A stretch of 64,000 nt of DNA from Paraspadella gotoi (lineage: Eukaryota; Animalia; Chaetognatha). The position numbers and the translations under genes were made by a program. Below the pieces are notes generated by a model. The model was not told the origin of the DNA, ran no database searches, and saw only the letters and a list, made by a program, of their open reading frames with translations. Positions 9,101 through 33,100 of this stretch are shown one piece after another (position 1 is the stretch's first letter; every line of letters begins with the position of its first letter). The stretch is taken from NCBI GenBank assembly GCA_051294375.1, contig CM119263.1:13718414-13782413 (forward strand), written 5' to 3'.

Positions 9101-12100
9101 ACGAACAAACGTTTCAATGTCGCAATATGTAAAAAAAAATTATAAATGGATAATTAAAAAAAAACCATAAGCTATCAGGATCAATCTTTCTGTTTTAATA
9201 AAACTAAAGGAAAACGATTTTTCCTACCCTCATTCCCTCCCAACGCGACACGGCTCTGAGAGGCCTCAGCGCGCGCAGGGTTCTCATTGTGCGAAATGCC
9301 GGAATGCTAGCGTAGCCCATAATGGCCGCCGCTAGGTTGATTATGGAAACCTTTGTGAGTTGAACAGTCAAGTATCGTGGTATGGATCGTGAAAAAGGAG
9401 CGCGGGTTTGACAAGATTTGGGGATTTTAAGGGGTCGTGGATGCCAGCGAGGTCGTGGTCGTGAAAATTACGGGTCATCAAGGATCGGTGGGGGGGCGGG
9501 AGGAAGGAAAACAAAAGAAAAAGATGAGATCGTCAGCGTCGTGAAAGACTCACCCTCATCCCTTCTAGCCTTGACAAGGCTCTCAGCGGTCGAAGGGCTC
9601 GCAGCGTCCTCATCGACCGGAACGCGGATACGTTTCCCAGGTTCAGCATGGCTGCAGCTAAATTGATTAGCGATACCTGCGTAAATAGGAGGGAGGGGAG
9701 GCGAATAGGGATTCCGTTCAAAATTCACCGCAAAAATAAGGAAAAATCTATGTTTGGTTTTTTTTTTCGCTCTACGTAGTACAGAAAGTAAAAGGCGCAT
9801 GTTCCGAGTAGAACATATGTCAGCCAACGCTGGGCAGAATTGGGCGATAGGATTGTGGAACGAAATGAAAATGTGACGGAGGAGAGTACTCCTTCACTCG
9901 ATAATAGAATGTTATGGTACTAATACTATTTAAGATGCAAGTAGTTATTGTATTAACATACATACGGTACTAAAATATAAGCAGGTGAGTTATAGGGGAG
10001 TTAAATATATTTTTACAAATGTTAATAAACGTTTAAAACTATCATTTAATGTTCGGTAAAGTTGAAATACGAAAAAAATATTCGAACTACGTATTATTCA
10101 AAATAGGAACATGCAAAAATTTATGAAAGAGTGACGCAGCTGCGAAAGTTGATGTAGTGAAATGAGTATCATGATACTGTATATATATTTATATACATTC
10201 ATATGTTTAATCAATAAGGTCGTCAGTGAAAGTGCTAGTTTTGAAGAATAAAGCTGAACCAAATTGGCTTCATCAAATAATCGATCGTCTCATAAATAAT
10301 TAAATGAAATGTGAAAAAAAATACCAATTACGATTTTATAGAAACTTGAAAAAAATTGCAAGACATTAACACGTACAAGGCTAACACAACGAATTTGGGG
10401 CGGAGACGTTTTGACTCGCATGCGTCCTAAAGATGATGATGCAACGTGATAATTTTAATGGGGACTCTAAACCGAAAAAAAAAAAGAGAGAATCCTACTA
10501 TGAATGCTCGGCATTCAACTAATTTATGAGAAGCTGAAGAGTGAAGTAATTATAGTGCCTTCTATCGTTTACGACATGCCAAAAGCGTAAGGGGTAGGGG
10601 TTTATTGAGATCTTTTAAATTTTCACTTACAGCTACAATGATGAAATCTAGCCAACACCAGGCGTTGGTGAAGTAAGTCTTGAAACCCAGTGCTAGCATT
10701 TTTACAACCATTTCAATGAAAAAGACAACTGTGAATACGTCGTTCATTCTATCCAGGGTGACTTGTAGCCATAGGCGGTTTTTCAGGTCTACATCCTCTA
10801 CAGCCTGATCGCGTCCGATTCAGAGAAAAATCGAGTAGTTGTCAGGTAAGGAAGTCATCGCGGTAGAAAATTAAAGATGAAAAATCATGAAGCGGAAAGA
10901 AGGCAGCAAAAGAAAGATGAAAGAAAAAGTTTTATTGTTGTTACTGTGTACAGATATGGTATTAGATAAACGCCGATTTATATCAAACTTCTTGATATTT
11001 AAAAAAAATTACTCGCACATTTTTTTCCGTTAAGTTTTCAACTGTCCATTCGATATTTAAAACAAAAATAACTAATCTTGGACGACCACGGTTTAAAATG
11101 ATGAAGCCAAATTATTCTCTTGATTGGAAAAAAGCTATAAGCCAATCTTTGGGAAATAAATCCTCAAAGTGCAAAGAGAGGATATTGTAAAGATTTTAAA
11201 GAAACTCGACTTGGAAAATATCGAGAGAAAGGGACAGTTGAGATTTTGACGACGATCAAAAAAAGTAGGAAGAAACATTAGTTAAAATTCGACGTAAATT
11301 AACTTACGGCCACAATGACGATGTCTAACCAACACCAGGCGTTGGTGAAATAACTTTTAAAGCCTAACGCTAACATTTTCACAATCATTTCGATAAAGAA
11401 TATAATTGTGAATATTCTGTCCATGTACAATAATATGTACTGCAACCAAATATTATGGGGAATGGAATGATCTTCTACGGCCTGTGGATCAAGATTGATA
11501 TGGATAACAAGACGGCAAAAAAAAATCAAGATAAAAATATTTTAGTAAAAGTTCAAAAAAATTTATTTACATTTTTTTGGTATATTGTTACTTTACTTTA
11601 CGACAAAATGCTTGTTCTAAAATTATTCTTTACTCACCTCCCCCAATTTTTCGTGACCCAATGGCTATACGAAATGCACCGATTATATAATTACATTTAA
11701 ATACATTTTCAGGCGAACCATTTGCTAACACAGCGGATGGAAAAAAAAAACAACCAAAAACTAGAATAGCTAGATAAGTTCACTTCACTTCACTGCACTT
11801 CAGGCGAAATCAGGGAGCTCGGGACTCACGGCCACAATGACGAAGTCCAGCCAACACCAGGCGTTGGTGAAGTAGGTCACGTATCCCATGGCAACCCATT
11901 TGGTCAACATCTCGAATATGAAAATGATCGTGAAGCCCCGGTCCATGTAGTGAAGCGTGTACTGGAGCCAGTCGCGGCCCGGGAGATACACGTCTTCCAG
12001 GGCCTAGTCAATCCGCGAAAACGTCGAATTTTCCATAAGAGTTCAACTCGGATTCGGAAATGTGTTAAAACAAAAAAGCACACTGCACACAAGCTATGAA

Positions 12101-30100: not shown

Positions 30101-33100
30101 AAACATTTCTTATTAGGGTGATGTGAAGATGACGGCGATCTATGGGAGGAGGGTGAAGGATGTGACTTTGGTTTAAAAAATGAAGACTCAATAATAAATG
30201 CACGTCAACTTTAAGCATAACTTGTCAGTTTGATAGTTATGAATTAAAAGATTATCACTCTTTACCTAATGCTGTTTAAATTACAATAAGTTAACATACA
30301 ATTTTTATTGAATCATTTTTCTTTGAACTAACAAAGAGATGAAAGCGCAACATAATAATTAATTTTTATATTTCTATAAAAAAGGTTAGGAAAATAATTC
30401 GCTTTCCAACCCTTTTATACTTTTCTTGTAAAACGATGTCCTAAATTTCAAACTAGAGGCCTAAATATTACAAATATTAAATAATATTACCAAAATATCA
30501 ATAAAACTAACGCCGCTCGTTTTACAAGAAACTACAACGAATCTACAAACAAAGGTATTTTCTTTAAGATGGAAAAACAAACAGACAGAATGGATGGAAA
30601 ACAAAAACGAACAAAATATAAGCGAATAAATTAAGGGGTAAAAATGGAAACGGAATGACGAGTTACAACATAAACATCGGAAGAACGGGAAGAACGGGAA
30701 GAACGGGAAGAACGGGAGACTAGGACGAAACTGGGAAGCTTTTTTACGAAGGAACGGTTGTTTTTTTTTTGTCATTTTTTTTTCTGCAGAATAAATCACT
30801 ACTAAACGTGAAAAAGAGAGAAAAGAGAGAGAAAAACTGAGAGTCACAGACACGAGACACAGCGACGGGAAAACTCAAAGACGTCCATTTGAATGAAGGT
30901 TGCTTTATGATGGGGTGGGGGTGGGGGAGAACTGGAAATAGGTTTTGTTTTGTTTTTTTTTTGTTGTTTTTTTTTTTTGTCGAAAACGAATCGGAAAGAC
31001 ACAACAACGAGCAAGACGAAAAGGGAAAGTCGAAGGGTGTAGAGGACTGGAGGTATGAAGATTTGGAGAAAAGATGAAGAAGAGTGGAACATTTTTACCT
31101 GGAACGATTGCAACTGTTTTTAAAGCCCTCAAAACTCTAAAAGTTCGAAGGGCAGATAAATTGCCTAATTCAACAAACATCGTGACGTACCTGTGAAGGA
31201 AGGAAGGAAGAAAAGAGAGAGAGAGAAAGAGAGAGAGAGAGAGAGATAGGGAGAGAGAGAGATAGAGAGTGATAGAGACAGAGAGAAAGAAAAGGAAGAA
31301 GGGCCAGGGGGGCACGACACAGCAAACCGTTAGTCGAGCGGGTATGTCTTTCACGTACCTGGTACAATGGCAACTGTTTTTAATGCTCGGAATACTCTGC
31401 ATGTTCGTAAGGCAGACAGATTTCCTAAGTCTATAAACATGGTAACATACCTAAGAAAACAATGTAATGCGGTTAAAATTGAGCATTTAAATTTTAGTAG
31501 AGAAACAAATTATTATACTCCTGATTATAGTACTCACGCTAAGGAAATAACCACAAAATCTAGCCAGTTCCAAGGATCTCGTAGATATGTGAAGGGTTGT
31601 AAGATGAAGCCTCTGGCAATCATTTTGATGATAGATTCAAATGTATATATGGCGGTGAAAATATATCTGAAATTGGATATCAAATATTGTTATTTTCGAA
31701 GGGCTACTTTCGTTAAAAAGTTTTTTTTCCTGAGCAGAACTTACTCTGTTCCTGGGACTTCTTCGGTCATCGCCATGAAGCCACAGTTCGCTAAGATGGT
31801 AAGAATAACTAACATGCTAAAAATAGGATGCACCAGAATGTAGATTGCTATCCTTCGTAAACCGTTAAAAGGAGTTAATAGCCAGAGAGCTTTTGTGGCA
31901 CTGAAACGGAAGATATCTTTGCCTTTACTTATCACAACAAATGTCTGTAAAAAAAAAAAGAGAGTAGGGAAAATGGGAAAGGGAGAGGAAAATGAAGAGA
32001 GAGTTTGAAACGATTAAAAAAGGGAAAAGCAGCGGGAGAAAAGAAAAATGAAGAGAGTGAGAGAAACGGGATAGGGGAGGGGAAGAAAATAAATATTAGT
32101 CACTACATTTATTGGATTTTTTAAAAATTTTGATTGCGTTATCTACTAGAACCGTTATTTAGATGCTGTGAGAGTTTTGATTGAATTTATCACTGTCGAA
32201 TCGTCAAGCTATCACCATTAGTCACAGTGCGGAAAGTATTGAATTGTGCTGTGCTATCATTATTAGAGAATCGGTCCGCACGTGGTGTTCGTTATAATAA
32301 ACACGCTTCTTCGTTTTTAACTATCGATCATTTTTCTTTTATATATATATTTTTGAATACCCGAGCAACCCCGTATGATTTTCTTTGTGGTTCAATAAAA
32401 CATTTAATTAATTTAATCATTTAACGCGAACTCAAATCGAAACTTGAGACGTAGAATCAATCCATCCGTATGCGCCATCTGTTCCCGCATGCAAACGGGC
32501 TCCGCTTATAGATAATAAAATTGCAATAACAAGTCTTAATCTAGTTTTTTTTTTCATTGTACCTTACGGGTAAAAATAAATTAAATAAAAAAGCGTGTAT
32601 TTTGAATAAAGAGCATCGGCTAAGACGTCTTTGTGATTTTTCCGCCCAACCTTTTCGTTCGCAATTTTTTCGGTGAGAAAAGTTAGTAAAAAGAACCGCG
32701 CCTCGACTACGTAATATCGTAATATACGAATTATTGTAAGTAATACATCGATTAAATTATGGTTTATTATATACGTATATGAGATGCAACACGTATCGTC
32801 GAGGCGTGTCCGCTAGAATTATTTATAGGAAAAGCAAATCTCTTTAATGACTTGATTTTTTAGCTGGTGAGGATTTTGTGTAAATGAAATGGCAGGGGCC
32901 AAGAAAGAAGGGAGTCCCTGCTTGAACAAAAGACCTTACCGAAAACTGGAGGGAGAAAAATGAATCGGGAAGGGGAATGGAAATAGGGAAACCTTACGTT
33001 TGTTACTTTGATAATTCTTTTTTTCGTAATTCGGTATTTCGTAAAATTCATTTTTAATTCGTAACTCCTCGTTTCTCGTTACTAACTGAAACTGATCACG

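Follow-up and report, generated by a model that had tools for sequence, protein, structure and literature searches.

The window, which is the whole 64-kb stretch of DNA analysed, carries a Nav1 (para-type) sodium channel α-subunit gene (1872–39581, minus strand) with four tandem sets of duplicated exons. The two exons of the domain I (DI) turret are spliced either-or, and the other three sets are likely used in the same way. Taken together, the analysis suggests that the gene probably tunes channel gating across cells by swapping parts of voltage sensors I and III.

Nine duplicated exons in a Nav1 gene

The encoded protein has four 6-helix domains whose P-loops supply one residue each (D, E, K and A) to a DEKA filter, and its III–IV linker carries MFM, the hydrophobic inactivation triplet. 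Among solved structures, its best matches are Nav channels. Assignment to Nav1 follows a tree in which the channel is sister to arthropod para with a support of 97. The 5′ end of the gene is approximate, and a contig from sequencing run X9 joins position 35723 to position 31944. The DII S4–S6 exon (17208–17556, minus strand), which spans the Drosophila c/d region, is present in a single copy, as an initial annotation of this DNA had proposed.

The four sets comprise two DI S3–S4 exons of 92 nt, two DI turret exons of 61 nt, three DIII S1–S3 exons of 174 nt and two DIII S3–S4 exons of 123 nt. All nine lie on the minus strand, are stop-free, and are preceded by AG and followed by GT; length and phase are equal within each set. 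The initial annotation had described nine such same-length, same-phase exons, and each was verified at its span. Its statement that every duplication falls in a voltage sensor or an extracellular loop also agrees with the exon positions. A search of the 64-kb window with 25 other exon peptides, which omitted one exon and took five linker or N-terminal exons in the wrong frame, detected no further duplicated exons; its matches were cross-domain homology and two weak chance matches.

The DI S3–S4 set follows a constitutive exon (31538–31666, minus strand) that is joined to copy a by splicing in X9 and X11. Copy a (31359–31450, minus strand) encodes the S4 sequence R-T-C-R-V-F-R, and is separated by a 168-nt intron (31191–31358, minus strand) from copy b (31099–31190, minus strand), which encodes the consensus S4 sequence R-T-F-R-V-L-R. 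Between the two copies, the linker shows an Asp/Glu exchange and S4 shows Cys/Phe and Phe/Leu exchanges. The Phe-Leu combination of copy b is the animal consensus (188 of 206 matched proteins), whereas the Cys of copy a occurs in 0 of 206 matched relatives. Both the Cys and the Phe of copy a are kept in organism C.

Downstream, a constitutive exon encoding DI S4–S5, S5 and the start of the turret (29077–29283, minus strand) is spliced to S3–S4 copy a and to both turret exons, copy a (28741–28801, minus strand) and copy b (28443–28503, minus strand). The turret set is followed by a constitutive exon encoding the DI P-loop (26132–26276, minus strand).

In domain III, S1–S3 copy a (11830–12003, minus strand) is the most conventional and retains the S2 Asp and a Lys-Trp pair, which is replaced by Lys-Met in copy b (11308–11481, minus strand). 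Copy c (10631–10804, minus strand) is 79% identical to copy b in DNA across 116 nt. It replaces the outer S2 acidic residue, which is Asp in 66 of 67 relatives, with Asn, and carries Asp at the next position. The DIII S3–S4 copies a (9554–9676, minus strand) and b (9228–9350, minus strand) flank a 203-nt intron (9351–9553, minus strand).

Splicing and maintenance of the copies

Direct evidence for alternative use comes from X9, which, like every other listed run, is not recorded as RNA and was taken as RNA from its spliced behaviour. Two 119-nt X9 contigs, one per turret copy, contain that copy alone, show no other letters and have both flanks in common; their loose ends match the start of the P-loop exon. 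Turret copy b is also spliced alone in X11. No joint between turret a and turret b is listed among the X9 contigs, and none of these splice joints is listed in the two DNA runs. The DI turret pair is thus spliced either-or, and here the mutually exclusive splicing claimed in the initial annotation is borne out by RNA; for the DI S3–S4 set and both DIII sets, the exon anatomy makes the same behaviour likely. In DI S3–S4, copy a alone was seen spliced in both RNA runs (X9 and X11), which represent two species, and its use is dominant. Copy b is covered by an unspliced 169-nt contig only; contigs drop rare variants, and show presence rather than absence. The 24 channel forms given by 2 × 2 × 3 × 2 are an arithmetic ceiling, not an observed count.

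Copies within a set share 54–76% of their DNA and 42–87% of their protein sequence, and the DI turret is the most divergent by protein (42% identity). The initial annotation had called for per-exon substitution rates; pN (0.08–0.40) is far below pS (0.65–0.82) in all six pairs. Simulated neutral decay of six copies left 0.3–7.7% intact and reduced protein identity to an average of 16–39%. Because synonymous sites are near saturation while the protein is conserved, the substitution pattern identifies the copies as old, selected exons and not haplotypes.

Two alternatives bear on whether the duplications are real and in use. That the copies are haplotypes or products of mis-assembly could be suspected because no listed contig spans both copies of any set. 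This is extremely improbable, given the low DNA identity and the 120-nt flanks that cannot be aligned (local scores 14–21). Furthermore, the two turret copies are joined to the same flanking exons, and turret b, S3–S4 b and introns close to them are covered by DNA contigs from other samples that show no deviating letters. The artefact reading, which the initial annotation had named as one of two ways to refute its claim, is effectively refuted. A more substantial alternative is that only some sets are live. In that case DI S3–S4 copy b, together with one or two copies in DIII, would be used seldom or would have been retired recently, and the number of forms would be far below 24. The exclusive appearance of DI S3–S4 copy a in both RNA runs fits such partial use, and a freshly silenced exon would still appear intact. 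Against it, the S4 of copy b matches the animal consensus, its synonymous sites are near saturation and the DI S3–S4 pair retains its branch-point layout; partial use is considered less likely than not.

Several features suggest how inclusion of both copies may be avoided. The branch-point motif CTRAC lies less than 50 nt from the donor in two of 26 introns, precisely the two that separate S3–S4 copies (+29 in DI and +21 in DIII), against a background expectation of 0.067 per intron; this count was made after the motif had been noticed. Both introns are AG-free from the putative branch point to the acceptor, with a pyrimidine tract in DI and about 195 nt without AG in DIII. AG-free length alone is non-specific (shuffle p of 0.29 for DI and 0.002 for DIII), and other introns reach 137–300 nt. 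Since the motif is so near the upstream donor, steric exclusion is predicted for both S3–S4 pairs: the branch point of the second copy would lie too close, at under 50 nt, to the donor of the first.

A comparable arrangement is found in OGDH exons 4a/4b, where branch points 25–41 nt from the upstream donor fall under a threshold of approximately 50 nt and are followed by a long AG-free tract (PMC7969005). The OGDH branch points were mapped experimentally, whereas those proposed here are predictions at the level of the motif. The 92-nt and 61-nt sets may additionally be policed by frameshift, likely through nonsense-mediated decay, as double inclusion or skipping leads to early stops. For the in-frame 174-nt triple, regulated competition between splice sites is offered as a guess.

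Other mechanisms of exclusion were considered. Docking-site/selector pairing was set aside, as the best candidates were within ~2 kcal/mol of eight shuffles or worse, and the top one paired G-rich with C-rich sequence. Incompatibility between U2 and U12 splice sites was rejected because every cassette donor is U2-type. Among 30 windows examined for splice-site hairpins, z fell below −2 at one constitutive acceptor only. UGCAUG motifs showed no clear placement near the cassettes, and Rfam returned no matches.

Origin of the S3–S4 pairs

The two S3–S4 pairs match the positions of vertebrate 5N/5A and arthropod k/l, and likely arose separately from them. This is argued from the placement of the channel outside all ten sampled arthropods (support 100), the lack of an l signature and the lack of any detected exon-5 duplication in arthropods and molluscs. 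The l signature, a pair of Gln residues characteristic of l across 37 distinct sequences, is in neither DIII S3–S4 copy. Exon-5 duplication was not detected in arthropods and molluscs (PMC12772994), and no second DI S3–S4 version was found in sampled arthropod isoforms. The duplications would then have arisen within the channel's own lineage, at exons also duplicated by vertebrates and arthropods. A sea-spider-like placement of the channel with euchelicerates was tolerated when a fish was the only outgroup (p-AU 0.44), and was rejected with five outgroups (p-AU 1e-6).

The alternative is inheritance: arthropod k/l would be orthologues of the DIII pair, chordate 5a/5b would be orthologues of the DI pair, or both would hold, with loss elsewhere. 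Exon lengths and borders are equal (123 nt and 92 nt), the channel is sister to arthropods, and k/l-type pairs are also present in chelicerates and crustaceans. Moreover, DIII S3–S4 copy b averages 75% likeness to k-type exons versus 67% to l-type exons. Yet the two-Gln mark is absent from both copies, and the k-like copy is the second, contrary to the order k before l in seven of seven gene models showing both. The WEGMR ending also occurs in a nemertean and a mollusc and, because they share it, is taken to be ancestral, which further weakens the case for orthology. Inheritance is therefore considered rather unlikely, although the tree of DIII S3–S4 exons, with 41 columns, does not resolve the origin of the pair.

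Possible functional consequences and known systems

The Drosophila K/L exons set persistent current, and the cockroach G1/G2 exons set gating and pyrethroid sensitivity (PMC4309913). By analogy with k/l and 5N/5A, exon swaps in the present gene may shift activation, inactivation or persistent current, and the gene would tune gating per cell by exchanging parts of voltage sensors I and III.

The initial annotation had proposed diversification of toxin-exposed surfaces in addition to gating. Selection to escape or tolerate toxins on the outer surface would fit the position of the extracellular turret as the most divergent set, the variable S1–S2 loops among the DIII S1–S3 copies and the difference in pyrethroid sensitivity between cockroach G1 and G2 (PMC4309913). 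It is unlikely nonetheless, and that claim is unsupported. The classic toxin sites lie in the loops of the selectivity filter and in the voltage sensors of domains II and IV, all of which are single-copy here. The Cys and two glycosylation sequons are retained in each turret copy, net charge and length are equal, and pN is below pS in all pairs.

Multiple duplicated exon sets in one channel gene are known, as are the S3–S4 positions. Three tandem-duplicated exon events each are present in Cacophony and CACNA1C/D (PMC9741552), compared with four sets, one of them a triple, in the sodium channel described here; Drosophila para has two such pairs (PMC4309913). The sets reported in the initial annotation are real, but less singular than they might seem, given these calcium-channel genes and the duplication of both S3–S4 positions in vertebrates and arthropods.

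The DI pair resembles vertebrate SCN exons 5a/5b (5N/5A), two tandem 92-nt DI S3–S4 exons whose double inclusion or skipping shifts the frame (PMC12772994). It differs in belonging to a protostome, where that study detected none, and in its predicted control by a distal branch point rather than by RNA structure and Rbfox. The DIII pair shares 123-nt exons and borders with arthropod para k/l, including cockroach G1/G2 and Liposcelis 27A–D, and with vertebrate 18A/18N (PMC4309913, PMC3805903). Unlike k/l, it has no l-type copy, does not follow the k-then-l order, and has two full-length copies. It is also preceded by a triplicated S1–S3 exon, so that voltage sensor III would be exchangeable over most of its length (six combinations).

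Searches of the open-licence literature gave no description of a Nav channel in which the turret or the DIII S1–S3 exon is duplicated. Invertebrate Cav3 exons 12a/12b and NALCN exons 15/31 are likewise alternative turret or pore-loop exons of four-domain channels, but they lie in domain II or III and alter ion selectivity via cysteines or a filter residue (PMC4436565, PMC6259924); the present pair lies in domain I of a Nav channel, and its two copies agree in length, Cys and net charge. A metagenome scan with DIII S1–S3 copy b yielded 114 pattern matches; the one that passed had 39% identity and no match to the channel, and was discarded.

A tentative, broader reading is that every one of the nine exons is in use, combined in a cell-specific manner. 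A non-arthropod protostome would then derive from one gene a family of as many as 24 sodium channels, comparable to that of vertebrates, having independently re-invented the 5N/5A and k/l switches and secured each by a distal branch point of the same kind. It would have added two switches new to Nav channels: the domain I turret, and a three-way sensor III module, one copy of which removes the charge of the outer S2 countercharge. Repeated S3–S4 exon duplication in vertebrates and insects has been cited as convergence (Copley 2004, as cited in PMC9741552). A third lineage with both S3–S4 switches in one gene would make the idea of a duplication hot spot testable, and the DI pair would run counter to a recent statement that protostomes lack exon-5 duplication (PMC12772994). 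The gene also offers material for structure–function tests on a fixed background, in the form of naturally occurring, selected versions of voltage sensors I and III, among them the DI S4 Cys and the DIII S2 Asn.

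Four duplicated exon sets in a sodium channel gene

On the minus strand (approximately 39581 to 1872) lies a complete gene for a sodium channel of four domains, whose filter reads DEKA and whose inactivation motif is MFM. Nine of its exons form four paralogous sets, as the initial annotation had described. These comprise two exons of 92 nt in DI S3–S4 (a, 31359–31450; b, 31099–31190), two of 61 nt in the DI turret (a, 28741–28801; b, 28443–28503), three of 174 nt in DIII S1–S3 (a, 11830–12003; b, 11308–11481; c, 10631–10804) and two of 123 nt in DIII S3–S4 (a, 9554–9676; b, 9228–9350), lettered in order of transcription. 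All nine have AG/GT ends, equal phase and no stop codons. No second copy of any other exon was found among 25 queried, five linker or N-terminal queries being out of frame.

In all six copy pairs, pS is 0.65–0.82 vs a pN of 0.08–0.40. Sequences flanking the copies do not align with one another, and only 0.3–7.7% of such copies would stay intact under simulated neutral decay. The copies are old and under selection, and are not haplotypes. DIII S1–S3 copies b and c both replace Lys-Trp by Lys-Met and are 79% identical in DNA over 116 nt, which suggests that the triple arose by two successive duplications. Near their 3′ end, all three copies (10631–12003, minus strand) carry the same 21 nt, while synonymous sites elsewhere have reached saturation; this identity may stem from low codon degeneracy, from gene conversion or from an exonic signal.

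The last exon is 66–74% identical to arthropod para proteins, and nothing nearer with a name appears among the 120 matches listed. A tree built by quick search under a mixture model from 16 proteins and 1136 columns (one DIII S6 exon left out of the alignment), from a set without onychophoran, tardigrade, scalidophoran or chaetognath, placed the channel as sister to, yet outside, all 10 arthropods (supports 97 and 100) and separate from a nemertean and a mollusc. Grouping with euchelicerates was rejected (p-AU 1e-6), though not with a fish as sole outgroup. Three ENA proteins are identical to the DII exon over the matched part and then continue into different intron tails, indicating that relatives are present in metagenome assemblies.

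The DI S1 exon (31745–31944, minus strand) is uninterrupted by a U12-type intron, and a contig of run X9 reads straight through it; PMC6259924 describes this intron as conserved across nearly every Nav and Cav gene. The intron ahead of the III–IV linker exon (4004–8414, minus strand) reads as AT...AC with a U2-like donor, giving a conserved KKK-AGGSLEM join. Four bases further stands GTATCCTT, by consensus a U12-like donor, which would keep the frame as well when paired with the AG four bases further. U2-type AT-AC introns have been described in vertebrate SCN genes (PMC1557818). Long poly-Glu/Asp runs occur in the II–III linker (12908–13084) and N-terminus (39050–39150), both minus strand. 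An 89-nt direct repeat, 97% identical, within the DII–DIII intron (15796–15882 and 16120–16208) perhaps represents the ends of a small mobile element.

Splicing of the duplicated exons

Contigs of four sequencing runs, able to show presence only, were compared with the region of the DI sets (28250–31960). Run X9 (organism A) comes from another study; it was provisionally classed as RNA, and its contigs do skip introns at CT..AC ends. Two 119-nt X9 contigs, one via turret a and one via turret b, each carry a splice to the exon at 29077 and extend into the exon at 26276, and no a–b joint is among the matches listed for the four runs, a listing that leaves out 66 pieces and 15 loose ends. Both turret copies are thus used, each singly between common neighbours, and the pair is spliced either-or. 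None of these splice joints is among the matches listed for DNA runs X6 and X8. Run X11, from organism C (about 90% alike), uses turret b. DI S3–S4 a is used in the main contigs of both X9 and X11; copy b is covered in X9 by one unspliced 169-nt contig only.

Of the four switches behind the 24 variants initially proposed, that of the turret is seen in RNA; the number itself is a ceiling, since the comparison covered the DI sets and none of the four runs' contigs on 28250–31960 connects different sets. In the I–II linker (20540–25653, minus strand), a long Pro-rich exon (about 25196–25653) is accompanied by several small ones; some linker exons may be optional, which would give variants beyond 24.

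Skipping or double inclusion in the 92-nt and 61-nt sets introduces early stops, so decay could police both sets. For human exon 5, the vertebrate DI S3–S4 exon, decay is not the main factor according to PMC12772994. Skipping or double inclusion leaves the frame intact in the 123-nt and 174-nt sets, which need another means of exclusion. Introns between the S3–S4 copies carry a CTRAC motif at +29 (DI) and +21 (DIII) from the donor, with no AG between motif and acceptor in either. CTRAC lies within 50 nt of the donor in 2 of 26 introns, exactly these two (0.067 expected per intron), in a count made after the motif was noticed and with a few intron borders approximate. AG-free length by itself fails to discriminate inter-copy introns. 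This layout fits the steric exclusion by branch point mapped in OGDH (PMC7969005): a predicted branch point close to the first copy's donor would keep the S3–S4 copies apart. A search of the DIII S1–S3 triple for a docking site or hairpin found none. Around the acceptor of the constitutive exon that follows DI S3–S4 (29283–29358, minus strand), the sequence forms a long hairpin (z −3.4; one of 30 windows tested).

Residue differences between copies

In S4, the expressed DI S3–S4 a carries Cys where Phe stands in 206/206 matched proteins and Phe where Leu stands in 188/206 (550 proteins scanned, many being isoforms of one gene); copy b matches the consensus. DIII S1–S3 c carries Asn where Nav1.5 and Nav1.8 have an aligned Asp in S2; 66 of 67 distinct sequences have Asp at this position, which we take to be that of a gating countercharge. 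Turrets a and b differ at 11 of 19 residues, with a Cys, two sequons and net charge kept. The suggestion that duplication diversifies toxin-exposed surfaces found no direct support: the filter loops and voltage sensors II and IV, presumably the main toxin sites, are single-copy. By analogy with Drosophila K/L and cockroach G1/G2, which are gating precedents (PMC4309913), exon swaps would change gating.

Comparison with known duplications

Among 151 arthropod proteins (13 groups of isoforms), two within-species versions of DIII S3–S4 were found in chelicerates, crustaceans and Drosophila, and of the c/d exon in Drosophila. None had two versions of DI S3–S4, turret or DIII S1–S3, a weak negative given incomplete annotations and search patterns that failed to capture certain turrets, as well as domain I in the Drosophila set. 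Artemia isoforms (P0054, P0241–P0253) have two l-like DIII S3–S4 versions, another apparent duplication of that exon.

The l signature is absent from both DIII S3–S4 copies. Under a labelling rule based on two Gln positions, k precedes l in 7/7 arthropod models with both, whereas here the k-like copy is second. A tree of this exon (41 columns) gave no resolution. According to PMC12772994, exon-5 duplication is present in chordates, with none detected in arthropods and molluscs. Together, the missing l signature, the copy order and the lack of a reported exon-5 duplication in arthropods and molluscs make it likely, on these comparisons, that the S3–S4 pairs arose independently of the k/l and exon-5 pairs.

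This kind of arrangement is already known, since calcium-channel genes with three such sets (PMC9741552) and turret exons in Cav3 (PMC4436565) have been described; here, in contrast, there are four sets in a sodium channel, and the turret is that of Nav domain I. No report of a Nav turret or DIII S1–S3 duplication was found in a search of mainly open-access literature, and the number of sets, these two positions and the lineage appear to be new.
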